NCBI GenBank assembly: GCA_023136205.1
Contig: JAGLRQ010000121.1
Span: 1-5,541 of the forward strand
Reading direction: 5' to 3'
Source: Candidatus Auribacterota bacterium
GTDB lineage: Bacteria; Auribacterota; UBA6266
Length of the DNA: 5,541 nucleotides
Shown: in pieces, positions 1-5,541 of the stretch
Numbering within the stretch: the stretch's first letter is position 1
Layout: each line of letters opens with the position of its first letter
Notes under the pieces: model-generated
The model's input: the letters and a program-made list of their open reading frames with translations, nothing else
Told to the model about the DNA's origin: nothing
Database searches by the model: none
Made by a program: the position numbers and the translations under genes

Positions 1-567
1 GTGAGTGAAGACGCGCCGACTAATCCAAAAGGAATATATGAGATTTCCAATCTTACAGCGGAAAAAATTATGAAGGTTTACAATGAAATACACGGTATTA
101 AGACAATACTCTTACGGTTAACTAATATTTACGGGCCGGGATCTCAAATGAAACACTCTCGTTTTGGAGTCGTAAACTGGTTTATTCGGCAGGCTATTGA
201 TAATGAAGTGATTAAAGTTTTTGGTGAAGGAAAGATTTTGAGAGATTTTCTCTATATTGATGACTGTGTTGACGCTATCCTTCTGTCCGCGGTTTCTGAA
301 CAAGCTGTTGGCGAAACGTTTAATGTAGGGATAGATAAACCAACCAGTTTTTTAGATCTGGTAAATTTAATTGTTAAAGTCGCGAAAGCCGGCAGATGGG
401 AGTTCGCGGAATTTTCACCGGAAAGAAAAGCACAGGAACCGGGTGATTTTTATTCGGATATAACTAAAATTAAAAATATTGTGGGCTGGCAGCCCGAAAC
501 AAGACTGGAAGAAGGATTAAAAAATACCATTGATTATTACAGACTGTATAAAAAACATTATTGGTAG
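1..567 (+). CDS. NAD-dependent sugar epimerase/dehydratase (extended SDR family), C-terminal fragment; the 5' end lies outside the window
   Basis: The frame is open from the window edge to TAG at 565-567. The translation shows extended-SDR hallmarks in the expected order: EDAPTNPKGIYEISNLTAEK (active-site Tyr region), LRLTNIYGPG, RDFLYIDDCVDA, ETFNVG, and a C-terminal ...GWQPETRLEEGLKNTIDYY tail. The N-terminal Rossmann GxxGxxG must lie upstream. The GTG at position 1 reflects the window edge, not a real start codon. Confidence 0.85.
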   Translation: MSEDAPTNPKGIYEISNLTAEKIMKVYNEIHGIKTILLRLTNIYGPGSQMKHSRFGVVNWFIRQAIDNEVIKVFGEGKILRDFLYIDDCVDAILLSAVSEQAVGETFNVGIDKPTSFLDLVNLIVKVAKAGRWEFAEFSPERKAQEPGDFYSDITKIKNIVGWQPETRLEEGLKNTIDYYRLYKKHYW

Positions 568-573
568 GGCTCA

Positions 574-1143
574 ATGACAGATAAATCCGTATATATCTAT
601 CCCAACGCAATTGTAGAGACAGAGGATATTGGTGAACATACACGGATATGGGCATTTGTTCATATACTGAAAGGAGCCAGCGTCGGAAATAATTGCAATA
701 TTTGTGAACATTGCTTTATAGAAGATGATGTAAAAATCGGAAATAATGTAACCGTAAAGTCGGGTGTGTACATTTGGAATGGAGTAAGGGTGGAAGACAA
801 TGTTTTTTTGGGCCCCAACGTTACGTTTACAAATGATATATATCCCAGAAGCAAAATTTATGAAAAAAGCTATCCGCGAACTTTTATCAAAAAAGGCGCG
901 AGCATAGGAGCCGGCAGTGTATTGATAGCCGGTATTACTATTGGGCGGTATGCCATGATTGGAGGAGGCTCTGTAGTTACGAAAGATATAAAAGATTACG
1001 AATTAGTATATGGAAATCCGGCAAGGCACCACGGTTATATTTGCGAATGTAAAGAGAAACTTAAATTCAAAAGCGATAAGGTTGTGAAATGTTCATGCGG
1101 GTTATTTTATGTATGTAAAGAAGGGGTTATTTCGAAAGTATGA
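574..1143 (+). CDS. Left-handed beta-helix (hexapeptide-repeat) sugar N-acetyltransferase, WbpD/WlbB-like, with a Cys-rich C-terminal tail
   Basis: 189 aa, with ATG 6 nt after the upstream stop. It has successive imperfect hexapeptide turns ([48 protein letters not shown]). The overall pattern IYPNAIV...RIWAFVHI...[12 protein letters not shown]...GNPAR matches my recollection of the UDP-2-acetamido-3-amino-2,3-dideoxy-glucuronate N-acetyltransferase (WbpD/WlbB) group. The TGA stop at 1141-1143 overlaps the next ATG (ATGA). Confidence 0.9.
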
Positions 1144-2252
1144 CATACCAGAATTCTTCGATATCTTTTTCCGGGTTGGTTGAGCAGTATGAGCGTATTA
1201 AGGATGAGATTAATCCGGCTATTGACCGTGCTGTAAAAAGCGGATGGTATATCCTTGGAAAAGAACTTGAGAGTTTGGAAAAGGAATTCGCGGGTTATTG
1301 CGGGGTTGAATATGCCATTGGATGTGCTTCCGGTACCGAGGCGATAGCGCTGTCTTTAATGTCTTTGGATATTAAAAGCGGGGATGAAGTAATAACGGTA
1401 TCCAATACTGCGGTGCCTACAGTCTCTGCTATTTCCATGGTTGGAGCAATTCCGGTGTTTGTTGATGTTGATGATTATTTCCTGATTGATACCAAAAAGA
1501 TTGAATCTGCCATTACTAAGAAAACAAAGGCTATTATACCTGTTCATCTTTATGGACAGATGGCTGATATGAATGAAATAATGGATATAGCCAGGCGAAA
1601 GAACATCAGAGTTATTGAGGACGCGTGCCAGTCACACGGTGCGGAATGTAAAGGACAAAAAGCAGGTTCTATAGGAGATCTTGGGTGTTTTAGTTTTTAT
1701 CCTACTAAAAATTTAGGTTGTTTTGGTGATGGCGGTGCTATTACCACAAACGATAAAACAATATATGACCGGTTGTCTATGTTAAGAAACTATGGGCAGG
1801 AAAAAAGATATCATAATCCAATTAAAGGAATTAACAGCCGGTTAGACGAAATACAGGCGGCAATATTAAGGGTCAAACTTGAGTATCTTAATGGATGGAA
1901 TAAAAACAGGAAGGAGATTGCTCGTTTATATAATGAGTTACTGTGTGATGTTTGCGTTACGCCTGCCGAAAAAGACGGGTATTCTCATGTTTTTCATCTT
2001 TATGTGGTCAGGGTGGAAAATAGAGAAGCCTTACAGAAGCATTTGAGAAAAAGTGGTATAGATACATTAATTCATTATCCGGTTCCCGTGCATCTCCAGC
2101 AAGCTTATAGTGAGTTACGCTGTAAAAAAGGCGATTTTCCTGTGACGGAACAATTGATGAAGGAAATATTAAGTTTGCCGATTTATCCGGGACTGCCCGA
2201 TGATGCTGTGAAATATATTTGTCGTAAAATTCATGAATTTGAAAAGAATTGA
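1140..2252 (+). CDS. DegT/DnrJ/EryC1/StrS family PLP-dependent nucleotide-sugar aminotransferase
   Basis: 370 aa, a typical length for the family. Family motifs present are [34 protein letters not shown] with the predicted Schiff-base Lys190 (AAA at 1707-1709), [12 protein letters not shown] and SLPIYPGL. The start overlaps the upstream stop by 4 nt. Confidence 0.93.
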
Positions 2253-2260
2253 GTGTATAA

Positions 2261-3226
2261 ATGAAGAAAGATAAAGTTTCAGTTATTATACCGGTTTATT
2301 ATAACAGTGAAAGTCTGCGGGAACTGTATGCTGATTTATGCGGTATTCCGGAACTGAATACTTTGGGAGAAATGGAGATAGTTTTTGTGGATGATGGTTC
2401 CGGTGATAATTCTTTTGAAATTATCCGCGGCCTGGCTTCAAAAGATAAGCGGGTTAGAGGTGTCAAACTTTCCCGTAATTTTGGATCCTTTGTAGCCTGC
2501 CTCGCTGGGTTGGCCCATTGCACGGGCAATTGCGCTGTTATAATATCAGCGGATCTTCAGGATCCTCCTGGTTTAATCGGGGCAATGTACAAAAAATGGA
2601 AGGAAGGCAATAAGGTTGTAATGGCTGTGAGAGAAGAACGAAAGGAGGGCTTTTTTAAAGTCCTGTTTGCCCGTATATTTTATAAGTTATTCCGTTTGCT
2701 CGTAACAAATGACATGCCTAAAAATGGTTTTGATTATGTGCTTATAGATAGACAGGTTGTTGATGTTTTGACTTCGATCCGGGAAAAAAATACAACCCTT
2801 ATGGGGTTGATACTTTGGATGGGTTTTAGCAGAGCAGAGGTTCCGTATACACGGATGGAAAGAAAACATGGAAAGTCACGATGGACGTTATATAAAAAGA
2901 TTAATTATTTTCTCGACTCTATCATGGCTTTTTCCCAGTTCCCAATCCGTATTTTCTCCGTGATTGGAATTTTTCTTTCAGGGATAAGCATTATCGGTAT
3001 TGTCTATGTAATTGTTGCGTATTTTTTAGGATGGATAGAAGGAGTAGCCGGATGGCCTTCGCTTATGGTAATTACTTTGTTTATGTTTGGGATACTATTT
3101 TTAGGCCTGGGGATGATGGGAGAGTACATTTGGAGGAATTTAGAGGAGACTCGCAAAAGGCCGCTATTTCTTGTAGATACTTATTGTAATAAGGTAAAAG
3201 CGGAGGCTAATTTTGAACAAAAATGA
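2261..3226 (+). CDS. Family 2 glycosyltransferase, GtrB/ArnC/DPM1-like polyprenyl-phosphate sugar transferase with two C-terminal TM helices
   Basis: 321 aa. It has an N-terminal GT-A fold signature (VSVIIPVYYNSESL, VFVDDGSGDNS, LSRNFGSFVACLAGL, ISADLQDPPGLI). Two hydrophobic helices follow at about residues 228-257 (FPIRIFSVIGIFLSGISIIGIVYVIVAYFLGW) and 265-288 (WPSLMVITLFMFGILFLGLGMMGE), and the protein ends EYIWRNLEE.RKRPLF. This is the architecture of ArnC and GtrB type enzymes that charge undecaprenyl or dolichyl phosphate. Confidence 0.9.
   Translation: MKKDKVSVIIPVYYNSESLRELYADLCGIPELNTLGEMEIVFVDDGSGDNSFEIIRGLASKDKRVRGVKLSRNFGSFVACLAGLAHCTGNCAVIISADLQDPPGLIGAMYKKWKEGNKVVMAVREERKEGFFKVLFARIFYKLFRLLVTNDMPKNGFDYVLIDRQVVDVLTSIREKNTTLMGLILWMGFSRAEVPYTRMERKHGKSRWTLYKKINYFLDSIMAFSQFPIRIFSVIGIFLSGISIIGIVYVIVAYFLGWIEGVAGWPSLMVITLFMFGILFLGLGMMGEYIWRNLEETRKRPLFLVDTYCNKVKAEANFEQK
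3202..3206 (+). promoter_or_regulatory. Shine-Dalgarno (GGAGG) for the methyltransferase gene, embedded in the 3' end of the glycosyltransferase gene
   Basis: GGAGG at 3202-3206 sits 6 nt upstream of the TTG at 3213. It is the only canonical strong SD I see in the window. It lies inside the upstream CDS, which fits translational coupling. Confidence 0.7.
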
Positions 3227-4241
3227 CCTGTCCTTTTTTCGCTGTCTTTCATGTAAGTCGGACCTGTCGTTAAAGGTTTTTGAAATAAATGAGGGCGATA
3301 AAGATAATGTGAAAGAAGGCGTGCTTTTTTGTCCTTCATGCAAAATTCTGTATCCGATATCAGAGAGCATCGCCCTTCTTTTGGATGTTGATTATTGTAA
3401 ACATTTTGATACCCGAAAATTTTTTCAGAAATGGAGCAAGGAATTTGATTTTGATAAGTATAAACCTTTACGGAAAGAAACCAGTTCCGAGAAGTTTAAA
3501 CAATTAGATTTTTACAACGAAGATTCCAAATCTTATGATGATCTGGTTAGTTATTCTAATTTTTGGAAGGCAAGTGATTGGAACATTCTTCAGGAATGGT
3601 CGGCCGGCCTGCCAAAAGACGGTGTGATTTTAGATGTAGGATGCGGGACAGGCAGATGCGCCGTTCCTTTGGTTAAGGGTGGAAAGCGTGTTATTGCTAC
3701 AGACCTTTCTATTGGTATGCTTAGAAAAGCTGTAGCAAAAAGTGCTGAAGCCGGGGTGAATAATATTACATATTTTTTAGCGGATGCTGAGAGTCTTCCG
3801 TTAAAACCGGATCTGTTTTCGGCGATAATTTCTTTTGGTTTACTGCATCATGTTAATAATCCGGTAACAATAATAAAAAGTACCGAAAAACTTTTGAAAG
3901 CCGGGGGGATATTTTGTGCCCTTGAGAATAATGCGTCACCTCTTCGTCCTATTTTTGAAATGTTAATGAAGATTTGGAAATTGTGGAATGAAGAAGCTGG
4001 AAGCCATCCTGTATTCAAGCTAAAAGAGATGAAAGCTTTTATAGAGAATAGCGGGATGTCCCCCAAAATACGTACAAGTACCTTTCTTCCTCCTCATCTG
4101 TGTAATCTTATGAGTTATAACATGGCCAGAAAGATGTTATTTCTTACAGATTGGATTTTTAACCGTATTCCGGTTGTAAGTAATTTTGGCGGGCAGCTTG
4201 TAGTAAGAGCAGTTAAAACTAAAAAAATCCCTCGAGCTTAA
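3213..4241 (+). CDS. Class I SAM-dependent methyltransferase (Methyltransf_11/25-like) fused to an N-terminal Trm112-like zinc-ribbon domain
   Basis: 342 aa with a TTG start (hand-checked: ttg aac aaa aat gac ...). The N-terminus FFRCLSCKSDL...EGVLFCPSCKILYPISESIALLL has Cys11/14/41/44 (nt 3243-3344), which is the Trm112/YcaR type zinc ribbon. SAM motif I is ILDVGCGTG (3627-3653). Then come the acidic loop VIATDLS, ADAESLP, the motif II-like ISFGLLHH, and LLKAGGIF. TAA stop at 4239-4241. Confidence 0.88.
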   Translation: MNKNDLSFFRCLSCKSDLSLKVFEINEGDKDNVKEGVLFCPSCKILYPISESIALLLDVDYCKHFDTRKFFQKWSKEFDFDKYKPLRKETSSEKFKQLDFYNEDSKSYDDLVSYSNFWKASDWNILQEWSAGLPKDGVILDVGCGTGRCAVPLVKGGKRVIATDLSIGMLRKAVAKSAEAGVNNITYFLADAESLPLKPDLFSAIISFGLLHHVNNPVTIIKSTEKLLKAGGIFCALENNASPLRPIFEMLMKIWKLWNEEAGSHPVFKLKEMKAFIENSGMSPKIRTSTFLPPHLCNLMSYNMARKMLFLTDWIFNRIPVVSNFGGQLVVRAVKTKKIPRA

Positions 4242-4259
4242 GAAAGATAATAACGCAAA

Positions 4260-5541
4260 ATGAAAGTATTGTTAATTAATGCTCCGTCAAAGTATGCGGC
4301 AGTGACTACATCGGATTGGGATACCACAGCAGAGGATATAGGCGCTTTTCCTCCGATTGGATTAAGTTATTTAGCCGGTTATCTTGTAAAAAATTCCTCG
4401 CATGAAGTGCATATCATGGATACCCTCGCTGAACAACTTGACTATGATGGAATCGAAAAAAGGGTTAAAGACTATCAACCTGAAATGGTGGCTATTACGG
4501 CGTTTACTCCGACTTTTTATGACGTTTTGCATGTTTCCCGCATAGTGAAAAAGAATATTCCGGATTGTTATGTATGTATCGGGGGAGCTCATGTAACATC
4601 ATATCCCGTTGAAACGATGAGCCATAAAGAGATAGATTTTCTTATTCACGGGGAAGGGGAAATTATTTTTTCTAAGCTTCTTGATGTCCTTGAAAAAGAT
4701 AAAAACGTGTCAGTTTTGGATGGAATTAGTTTCCGGGCTGACGGCCGTGTTATTCACAAGACAGAAAATAGAGGCTATATTGATGATGTAAATTCACTTC
4801 CATCTCCTGCCTTTAATCTTTTGCCGTTAGATAGATATAAGAGCGCTATAGGTACCGGTAATACTGTTGGGGTAATCGCGTCCTCCAGAGGCTGCCCTTA
4901 CGAATGTACCTATTGTAACCGTCCTTACCGTACTTATAGGTCTTACAGCAATGACAGAATAATATCTGAAATGGGTTTCTTTTATAACCGCGGAATAAAA
5001 GAATTTGTGTTTTTTGATGATATGTTTAATCTTACCCCAAAGCGTGTTATTGAAATAAGCGATGCTATTATCGCGGAATATCCTGATGTAACCTGGTCTT
5101 TCCGGGGCAGGGTGGATCAGGTCACGGAAGAGATGGTACGTAAGGCGAAGGAGGCAGGATGCAGACAAATTCTATTTGGTATTGAAGCCGCGAGAGATGA
5201 AGATTTAAAAGCCATCAAAAAGAAAATTACTACAAAGCAGGTAATAGATGGTATTGCTATCTGCAAAAAATTAGGGCTTGAAACAAGCACTAATTGGATT
5301 ATTGGATTGCCCACGCACAAAAGCCGGAATGATGTTCTTGATTTACTGGATTTTGCCGTAAAAAGCGGGTCCGATTATGCTCAATTCAATATACTTATTC
5401 CGTATGCCGGAACAGAAATATTCGATGAAGGCGTGAAGAAAAAAGTTTTATCGGCCAATTTTTGGAATGAATATGTTCTTAATCCTACACCGAATGCGTA
5501 TATTCCCATTTGGGAAGAGTATCTCAGCCGGAAAGAATTAA
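4260..5541 (+). CDS. B12-binding-domain radical SAM protein (class B radical SAM, COG1032-like); the 3' end lies outside the window
   Basis: This ORF is absent from the supplied track. I translated it by hand codon by codon. The ATG at 4260 follows an in-frame TAA at 4251-4253, and the frame has no stop through 5541 (427 codons plus 1 nt). The N-terminal MKVLLINAP...FPPIGLSYLAGYL...MVAITAFTPTF...VCIGGAHVTSYP...DFLIHGEGE is a cobalamin-binding-domain pattern without a DxHxxG His ligand, as is usual in class B enzymes. The radical SAM core is VIASSRGCPYECTYCN (Cys212/216/219, nt 4893-4916), followed by FVFFDDMFN, ILFGIEAA, NWIIGLP, and a YAQFNILIPYAGTE...FWNEYVLNPTPNAYIPIWEEYLS tail. Confidence 0.9.
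   Translation, partial: MKVLLINAPSKYAAVTTSDWDTTAEDIGAFPPIGLSYLAGYLVKNSSHEVHIMDTLAEQLDYDGIEKRVKDYQPEMVAITAFTPTFYDVLHVSRIVKKNIPDCYVCIGGAHVTSYPVETMSHKEIDFLIHGEGEIIFSKLLDVLEKDKNVSVLDGISFRADGRVIHKTENRGYIDDVNSLPSPAFNLLPLDRYKSAIGTGNTVGVIASSRGCPYECTYCNRPYRTYRSYSNDRIISEMGFFYNRGIKEFVFFDDMFNLTPKRVIEISDAIIAEYPDVTWSFRGRVDQVTEEMVRKAKEAGCRQILFGIEAARDEDLKAIKKKITTKQVIDGIAICKKLGLETSTNWIIGLPTHKSRNDVLDLLDFAVKSGSDYAQFNILIPYAGTEIFDEGVKKKVLSANFWNEYVLNPTPNAYIPIWEEYLSRKEL

Follow-up and report, generated by a model that had tools for sequence, protein, structure and literature searches.

A radical SAM gene with a predicted cobalamin-binding domain at the end of an Auribacterota contig and its association with a putative envelope-sugar operon

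Contig JAGLRQ010000121.1 of a Candidatus Auribacterota bacterium (GenBank assembly GCA_023136205.1), the 5,541 nucleotides of which are here called the window, carries one co-directional operon of overlapping or closely spaced genes, and the last enzyme gene of this operon encodes a radical S-adenosylmethionine (SAM) enzyme with a cobalamin-binding domain. Auribacterota is a candidate phylum of the PVC (Planctomycetota, Verrucomicrobiota, and Chlamydiota) group. A sequence-only reading of the window had pointed to this gene as an uninterrupted plus-strand frame of 427 codons in 4260-5541 that the list of open reading frames (ORFs) lacks. Translation bears this out, since the 427 codons are free of stops, begin with ATG, and give a protein starting with MKVLLINAPS. 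The gene and its recognizable parts are the following:

4260..5541, plus strand: class B (cobalamin-binding domain) radical SAM enzyme, first 427 of 483 codons (translation, Pfam, longer assemblies)
4347..4679, plus strand: B12-binding domain PF02310, an N-terminal Rossmann-type domain, residues 30-140 (Pfam, 66.4 bits, cut-off 32.1)
4881..5348, plus strand: radical SAM core PF04055, residues 208-363 (Pfam, 78.7 bits, cut-off 29.5)
4893..4916, plus strand: CPYECTYC, the CxxxCxxC [4Fe-4S]/SAM motif, residues 212-219 (translation; C212, C216, and C219)

The frame is open from position 4242, immediately after the in-frame TAA (4239-4241) of the upstream methyltransferase gene, and its first ATG is at 4260. 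With the base composition of the window (A 0.308, C 0.153, G 0.235, T 0.304), the chance of a 433-codon open stretch is approximately 6e-15. No clear GGAGG was seen ahead of the ATG. An exact look-up of the complete upstream methyltransferase identified two further assemblies: L001, a 291-kb ENA scaffold in which positions 6789-12329 reproduce the entire window with no mismatch, and L002, a 16-kb contig with 2 mismatches to the window. In both, the frame continues without an internal stop to a length of 483 amino acids, which also supplies the C-terminus that the sequence-only reading had proposed to recover by extending the contig. The coding sequence reaches 171 nucleotides beyond the window end (complete gene, L001 11048-12499), and the window protein is without the final 56 of its 483 residues. 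The gene is missing from the ORF list only, because NCBI has already annotated the 427-residue product on the 5,541-bp contig as “cobalamin-dependent protein, partial” (MCK4948149.1). The finding is correct but ordinary: a partial coding sequence at a contig end, annotated in GenBank, from a large and mostly unassigned class.

The domain assignments stand as well. Both domains lie well above their curated Pfam cut-offs, so that the N-terminal cobalamin-binding domain claimed from the letters alone is recovered by PF02310, and the CPYECTYC motif is present at residues 212-219. In family alignments of 28 and 44 sequences, which share 41-78% identity with the window protein, the invariant or nearly invariant elements are C212/C216/C219 (invariant in the 44 members), GG.H (residues 108-111, inside the B12-binding domain), a GEGE block (131-134), and FFDD.FN (251-257). 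The protein has no DxHxxG motif, the absence of which is expected in this class (PMC12931638). A conserved loop, A81-F82-T83-P84-T85, sits in a profile alignment where TokK and OxsB have their residue below cobalamin; across a loop with insertions and deletions, W76 of TokK pairs with P84, and N186 of OxsB lies between residues 81 and 82. This A-F-T-P-T stretch is hydrophobic and contains no Arg or Asn. A hydrophobic lower cobalamin face has been reported for radical methylases (PMC12931638), and the residues taken for comparison are W76 of TokK and a Leu in Mmp10.

An AlphaFold2 model was built from the 44 family sequences with P0001, a protein identical to the full-length product at 482 of 483 residues, and has a predicted local distance difference test (pLDDT) value of 90.5 and a predicted template modeling (pTM) score of 0.88. 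Strands and helices alternate over residues 2-146, a strand pair lies at 156-167, and residues 208-363 form a barrel of alternating strands and helices. The architecture is thus composed of a cobalamin-type Rossmann domain, a radical SAM barrel, and a C-terminal helical domain, and it is the class I B12-radical-SAM architecture described in a 2026 review (PMC12931638). A Foldseek search against the PDB returned 6WTE, 9CCB, 9N1B, 5UL4, and 7KDY with a probability of 1.00 and template modeling (TM) scores of 0.62-0.69; the model fits AprD4, TsrM, MgmA, CysS, OxsB, and TokK about equally (TM 0.62-0.69, normalized to the query), and the search could not separate methylases from non-methylases. When the family profile was compared with PDB sequences, AprD4 was matched with an E-value of 6.5e-32 over residues 174-398 only, its N-terminal domain scoring 1.0 bit; OxsB (from residue 37), TokK (from 72), CysS (from 60), MgmA (also called QCMT; 9CCB), and TsrM were matched as well. 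The N-terminal domain of the family therefore aligns with the cobalamin binders OxsB, TokK, and CysS and not with that of AprD4, which binds no cobalamin (PMC12931638). On the strength of this resemblance, the window protein is predicted to bind cobalamin.

None of the NCBIfam equivalog cut-offs was reached, either by the window fragment or by the full-length protein. The best model for the full-length protein was BchE (TIGR02026; 187 bits against a cut-off of 481, residues 25-406), which has the same domain order, and the second was HpnJ (TIGR03471; 177 bits against 578, residues 1-455 on positions 1-450 of a model of 472). Both were matched by all 28 members of the first alignment, with the best E-values among them. 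Lower scores were obtained for ApyD (158 bits), HpnR (123 bits), the PhpK family (122 bits), AprD4 (NF033070; 90 bits against 500, residues 174-389, that is, the radical SAM half only), and MgmA (89 bits). Placement against the known class B members, as the sequence-only reading had suggested, thus received a clear answer from curated models and PDB profiles: as judged from sequence comparison, the protein joins no characterized clade, and its nearest curated models, BchE and HpnJ, are matched far below cut-off. Three more specific identities were not borne out. For BchE, 187 of the required 481 bits were reached, the C-terminal region is unaligned, and neither chlorophyll genes nor other photosynthesis genes were seen in the 21-kb L001 locus; for HpnJ, the cut-off was not reached and no hpn genes occur in any family locus; for the AprD4-family diol-dehydratases, the score was again far too low, and the N-terminal domain gave the 1.0 bit noted above.

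Enzymes of this class had been called mechanistically unusual and mostly uncharacterized, which holds for the class as a whole; since the class comprises more than 80,000 sequences (PMC12931638), this description does not single out the present member. The family is large and common, with no claim to rarity. A word-indexed search yielded 635 relatives, the best 120 of which show identities of 43% or more and, with few exceptions, lengths of about 470-505 residues, and an exhaustive profile search of a library clustered at 50% identity yielded 83,163 representatives at E ≤ 1e-3 and 24,650 at E ≤ 1e-30, of which the best 150 all exceed 378 bits and mostly span the full length. Named relatives belong to Omnitrophota, Sedimentisphaerales, Zixiibacteriota, Auribacterota, Solidesulfovibrio, Fundidesulfovibrio, Nitrospinota, Tectomicrobia, and Altiarchaeota, and full-length homologs at 41-80% identity are found in several phyla. 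Their public labels conflict: several homologs are named “anaerobic Mg-protoporphyrin IX monomethyl ester cyclase” (BchE) or “YgiQ (UPF0313)” by the Joint Genome Institute (JGI), and one from Fundidesulfovibrio magnetotacticus is named “Hopanoid C-3 methylase” by NCBI. The curated BchE and HpnR scores of the window protein and of the 28 aligned members are far below cut-off, and these labels are probably over-annotation.

Upstream of the radical SAM gene, the window encodes the following, all on the same strand:

1..567, plus strand: short-chain dehydrogenase/reductase (SDR) of the nucleotide-sugar 4,6-dehydratase/epimerase type, C-terminal 188 amino acids (full length 330 amino acids, L001 6363-7355)
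574..1143, plus strand: hexapeptide-repeat sugar N-acetyltransferase, NeuD/PglB/VioB-like (domain searches; orthologs in L163 and L164)
1140..2252, plus strand: DegT/DnrJ/EryC1 sugar aminotransferase, PseC/ArnB-like (Pfam, 401 bits)
2261..3226, plus strand: ArnC/GtrB/PgfS-like family 2 glycosyltransferase (GT2), a probable polyprenyl-phosphate glycosyltransferase (PgfS 219 bits and ArnC 159 bits, below cut-off)
3213..4241, plus strand: class I SAM methyltransferase with an N-terminal Trm112-like zinc ribbon, directly upstream of the radical SAM gene

The best match of the full-length SDR is dTDP-glucose 4,6-dehydratase (154 bits, below cut-off). The GT2 has C-terminal transmembrane-like segments at about residues 221-286. 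The methyltransferase gene has a TTG start codon and shares its first 14 nucleotides with the end of the GT2 gene; its Trm112-like ribbon scores 24 bits with Pfam PF03966 and 38.6 bits with NCBIfam Trm112_arch, and the same fusion is found in the L167 ortholog. Downstream of the radical SAM gene, L001 encodes two membrane proteins of 543 and 512 amino acids with 13 and 9 transmembrane-like segments, respectively. Neither has a Pfam match, and the 512-residue protein has no NCBIfam match; the 543-residue protein matches a putative glycosyltransferase family of NCBIfam weakly (31 bits), and its L087 homolog (45% identical) passes the Pfam model Glyco_transf_22, an Alg9-like family of glycosyltransferases of the C-fold type (GT-C), with 31.1 bits against a cut-off of 23.8. 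BLAST gave no link between the two membrane proteins and YfhO. Around the radical SAM gene, no terminator or promoter signal rose above shuffled sequences, and no Rfam element such as a cobalamin riboswitch was found in the 21-kb L001 locus.

The main new information lies in the gene context, which was sampled in 16 distinct loci, each with a family member at 41-79% identity. The ArnC-like GT2 is the most consistent neighbor of the family: full-length homologs of the window GT2 (27-78% identical) occur in 13 of the 16 loci, usually 1-4 genes away from the radical SAM gene, the match in L162 being weaker and partial, and C-terminal transmembrane-like segments are present in every homolog checked. 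In L163 (Nitrospinota) and L164 (Fundidesulfovibrio), orthologs of the SDR (58% identical), the acetyltransferase (44-48%), and the GT2 (44-47%) lie upstream, and the GT2 is fused to the DegT aminotransferase. An SDR stands beside the radical SAM-GT2 pair in L004, L089, L091, L093, and L167, and in L005 and L165 a WcaF-like acetyltransferase is located directly upstream in place of the GT2. GT-C proteins of the YfhO family adjoin the radical SAM gene in L161, L163, and L167, and homologs of the 512-residue membrane protein are found in L003, L086, L087, and L089 and in 3-4 copies in L167. Most loci with enough flank have a class I methyltransferase next to the radical SAM gene or close to it; the Trm112-methyltransferase is directly upstream in L003, L087, L089, and L167, and class I methyltransferases of other kinds occur in the vicinity in L004, L161, L162, L163, and L166. 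Furthermore, P0166 (750 amino acids) and P0187 (693 amino acids), which score highly with the family profile, carry a C-terminal class I methyltransferase fused to the radical SAM module. The fused domains have only generic likeness to the window methyltransferase, so that the fusions speak for a partnership between types of enzyme and not for orthology. No chlorophyll, hopanoid, or RiPP (ribosomally synthesized and post-translationally modified peptide) precursor genes were seen in any family locus, and every conserved partner is a sugar-nucleotide or glycosyl-transfer enzyme. The operon context is not found in the next-nearest subfamily (31-34% identity), and because of this lack the paralogs from a profile scan of the contigs, at most 34% identical among the matches listed, were not taken as orthologs.

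This context suggests a role in a sugar pathway. The operon would make a nucleoside diphosphate (NDP)-4-keto-6-deoxyhexose, which would then be aminated and N-acetylated, and the sugar would be loaded onto polyprenyl phosphate. Outside the cytoplasmic membrane, the sugar on its lipid carrier would serve GT-C/YfhO-type transferases as donor, in the manner of the Arn, Gtr, and CsbB-YfhO pathways. The radical SAM enzyme and the methyltransferase would tailor the sugar, either as the nucleotide sugar or in its lipid-linked form. The proposal favored here, which has about an even chance of being right, is that the radical SAM enzyme is a cobalamin-dependent radical C-methylase of the N-acyl amino-deoxy sugar of the operon. 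SAM would be cleaved reductively at the [4Fe-4S] cluster to give a 5′-deoxyadenosyl radical, and this radical would abstract hydrogen from an unactivated sp3 carbon, either in the sugar itself or in its N-acyl or O-methyl substituent. The substrate radical so formed would receive a methyl group from methylcobalamin, and the cobalamin would be methylated again by a second SAM. The chemistry would be the same as that of GenK, Fom3, MoeK5, TokK, and CysS.

Several considerations favor C-methylation. C-methyltransferases dominate the class, being by far the most represented function, with one in every group that has a characterized member (PMC12931638). The N-terminal domain resembles those of cobalamin binders and not that of AprD4, and the A-F-T-P-T loop is hydrophobic as in the radical methylases. 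Methylation would also keep the anomeric phosphate that a glycosyl donor requires. Finally, the recurrence of a class I methyltransferase as partner is reminiscent of CysS, an enzyme that lengthens an O-methyl group already in place and the PDB ligands of which include 3-methoxy and 3-ethoxy substrates; this O-methyl-extension logic could explain why a methyltransferase accompanies the radical SAM enzyme here.

A number of observations weigh against this proposal. The evidence from the lower-axial loop is weak because the alignment crosses insertions and deletions. Neither BchE nor HpnJ, the curated models closest to the protein, is a methylating enzyme (PMC9204698), the best single PDB match by both sequence and fold is AprD4, a cobalamin-independent sugar diol-dehydratase, and non-methylating members are indistinguishable from methylases by sequence or structure (PMC12931638). 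As to the pathway, a homolog of the ArnC-like GT2 is absent from L005, L165, and L166 (3 of the 16 loci), and no flippase of the GtrA or ArnEF type was found among the called genes of the 21-kb L001 locus. In addition, no DegT gene is nearby in the subclade of 59-68% identity where there is enough flank (L004, L089, L091, and L167), so that the association does not depend on the amino group.

The main rival is a reading in which the pathway and the class of substrate are the same, and the chemistry performed on the sugar is a non-methylating radical reaction with cobalamin as an electron sink or absent; it is unlikely on present evidence and yet deserves serious weight. The candidates are a ring contraction of the HpnJ/Cds type that yields a carbocycle, a 1,2-diol dehydration (deoxygenation) of the AprD4 type with a neighboring SDR as reductase, and a radical epimerization or oxidation. 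HpnJ is the sole curated model that covers almost the whole protein, it has the same three-part architecture, and in a sequence network of class B enzymes it falls in the same main cluster as BchE (PMC9204698). It is proposed to act on lipid-linked glucosamine, an amino sugar installed by the glycosyltransferase HpnI, downstream of which it acts (PMC13459092; PMC9204698). However, its score of 177 bits is far under the cut-off of 578, no hopanoid genes lie near the window gene, and the lipid of the HpnJ substrate is bacteriohopanetetrol, whereas here it would be polyprenyl phosphate. Moreover, the ring contraction proposed for HpnJ would destroy the anomeric phosphate linkage that GT-C/YfhO transferases need and would thus be incompatible with a glycosyl-donor role. 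AprD4 (PDB 6FD2), a radical SAM 1,2-diol dehydratase with an amino-sugar substrate, is the best match among solved structures (E 6.5e-32; TM 0.68-0.73); against this, the radical SAM half alone aligns, the NCBIfam score is 90 of 500 bits, and the N-terminal domain is like that of true cobalamin binders. The SDR that adjoins the radical SAM-GT2 pair in five of the loci named above would suit a diol dehydration, but the window SDR is better explained as a 4,6-dehydratase feeding the DegT aminotransferase.

It is improbable that the substrate is not a sugar, as it would be if the enzyme acted on the polyprenyl carrier or another membrane lipid (as do HpnP/HpnR, the methylases of glycerol dialkyl glycerol tetraethers, and ladderane enzymes), on a peptide (a RiPP, as with ApyD-like enzymes), or on a tetrapyrrole (as does BchE). 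Such a substrate would agree with the first and third places of BchE and ApyD among the NCBIfam matches, with the JGI name of BchE-type cyclase on several homologs, and with an LPG_synthase_TM gene that adjoins the radical SAM gene in L162; many class B enzymes also modify lipids (PMC13459092). Nevertheless, BchE reaches only 187 of the 481 bits required, and the family loci present sugar-nucleotide and glycosyl-transfer enzymes as conserved partners and show no chlorophyll, hopanoid, or RiPP-precursor genes. It is scarcely credible that the plus-strand frame is a chance ORF or a pseudogene and the antisense ORFs are real, as the ORF list and the want of a clear GGAGG might suggest, and this reading is refuted by the low probability of the open stretch, the intact 483-residue copy in two further assemblies, the full-length homologs with invariant catalytic cysteines in several phyla, and the confident AlphaFold2 model.

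Radical C-methylation of an envelope sugar, the proposal favored here, can be compared with several known systems. By described chemistry, GenK, GenD1, and Fms7 (aminoglycosides), MoeK5 (moenomycin), and Fom3 resemble it in that they methylate unactivated sp3 carbons. The substrate of MoeK5 is a lipid-phosphoglycerate-linked sugar. GenK, GenD1, Fms7, and MoeK5 belong to sugar-containing antibiotic pathways, and Fom3, MoeK5, and HpnJ co-localize at a stringent network threshold (PMC9204698). The GenK/MoeK5/Fom3 group differs in being encoded in actinomycete secondary-metabolite clusters, not in envelope glycan operons. TokK, CysS, MgmA, OxsB, and TsrM share the class I fold with its N-terminal Rossmann domain (TM 0.62-0.69), whereas they are only 14-20% identical, and their substrates are a carbapenem, benzoate, protein, a nucleoside, and tryptophan instead of envelope sugars. 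In the Arn, Gtr, and CsbB-YfhO pathways, as in the present operon, a polyprenyl-phosphate GT2 (ArnC/GtrB-like) is found together with a sugar aminotransferase and an enzyme for N-acylation; a GT-C (ArnT/YfhO-like) would be a further component in common. They differ in that neither a flippase nor a deacylase was seen in the 21-kb locus here; small EamA-like genes are present only in L162, and L164 encodes a 306-residue EamA protein. To our knowledge, no described system of the Arn, Gtr, or CsbB-YfhO type includes a radical SAM enzyme. In the literature on polysaccharide, sugar, undecaprenyl, and nucleotide-sugar contexts, no precedent was found for a class B radical SAM enzyme in a lipid-carrier envelope pathway. 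It is tempting to speculate, as a tentative and rather doubtful further step, that this is the first cobalamin-dependent radical SAM enzyme in a primary cell-envelope lipid-carrier pathway, where it would tailor an N-acyl amino-deoxy sugar together with a class I methyltransferase. In that case, a polyprenyl-phosphate- or nucleotide-linked sugar would be placed on the surface by GT-C/YfhO transferases in uncultivated anaerobes of the Auribacterota, Omnitrophota, Planctomycetota, Nitrospinota, Desulfobacterota, and Altiarchaeota, and the reaction could lead to a C-alkylated sugar without precedent, such as one in which an O- or N-alkyl or acyl branch has been lengthened according to the logic of CysS and TokK. 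The link across phyla between the subfamily and a lipid-carrier amino-sugar pathway is of modest added value and provides a testable substrate hypothesis.

The ORF list, made at its default limit of 60 amino acids, has only three short minus-strand ORFs in 4260-5541, as the sequence-only reading had stated. Its presumption that the radical SAM frame had been dropped for want of a stop codon in the window is also confirmed, because the list leaves out frames that extend past either end, as this one does at the end of the contig; the omission thus comes from a listing rule and not from biology. The three ORFs are the following:

4371..5320 (4371-4592, 4827-5168, and 5117-5320), minus strand: three antisense shadow ORFs, not genes, which mirror sense-strand conservation

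Against homologs, they show 29-66% similarity, which is no more than a conserved sense gene would give, and they were rejected as genes. The listing rule of the track hid the largest gene in the last quarter of the window, and shadows of its coding strand stood in its place.

Some further features of the loci and of the family were observed. Residues ~155-189 of the window acetyltransferase form a C-terminal tail rich in Cys (CEC...CSC...C), which is similar to a small zinc-binding element and is missing from the 159-residue L003 ortholog. In L167, three tandem full-length homologs of the 512-residue membrane protein (35-37% identical) lie at 885-6926 with a YfhO gene just upstream of them, and a fourth, partial homolog lies at 12122-12718. 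The 21-kb L001 cluster contains four radical SAM genes in all, one of which, at L001 18697-20010, encodes a second B12-binding radical SAM protein of 437 amino acids; it is 28% identical to the window protein and is a distinct paralog. Positions 1-6360 of L001 encode an HldE-like kinase/nucleotidyltransferase, a GmhA-like SIS isomerase, a split transketolase (268 and 163 amino acids), two SPASM radical SAM enzymes, and a 265-residue GT2. This set suggests a route to a heptose-derived sugar that carries a two-carbon branch or extension. Parts of it recur in L003 (1-3385), L005 (1-5062), and L167 (13841-16441), and the recurrent set adjoins the B12-binding radical SAM module in Auribacterota, in the uncultured L003 and L167, and in Solidesulfovibrio fructosivorans JJ.

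In L166, the locus of family member P0112, seven radical SAM genes (B12-binding, SPASM, and plain) are located at 755-9422 and 15172-16566, six of them in an unbroken row that is followed by two unannotated proteins of about 510 residues. Giant proteins with 4-5 family-profile matches each also occur, namely P0160 (2096 amino acids), P0162 (2331 amino acids), P0181 (2279 amino acids), and P0276 (2012 amino acids); Pfam finds 4-5 tandem B12-binding/radical SAM modules in P0160 and P0162, and a SPASM domain also in P0162. These multi-module proteins may be real fusions or gene-calling artifacts. Across the window (1-5541), the coding strand is strongly skewed toward G over C throughout (G 23.5% versus C 15.3%; GC skew +0.08 to +0.30), and the six window genes are all on one strand.

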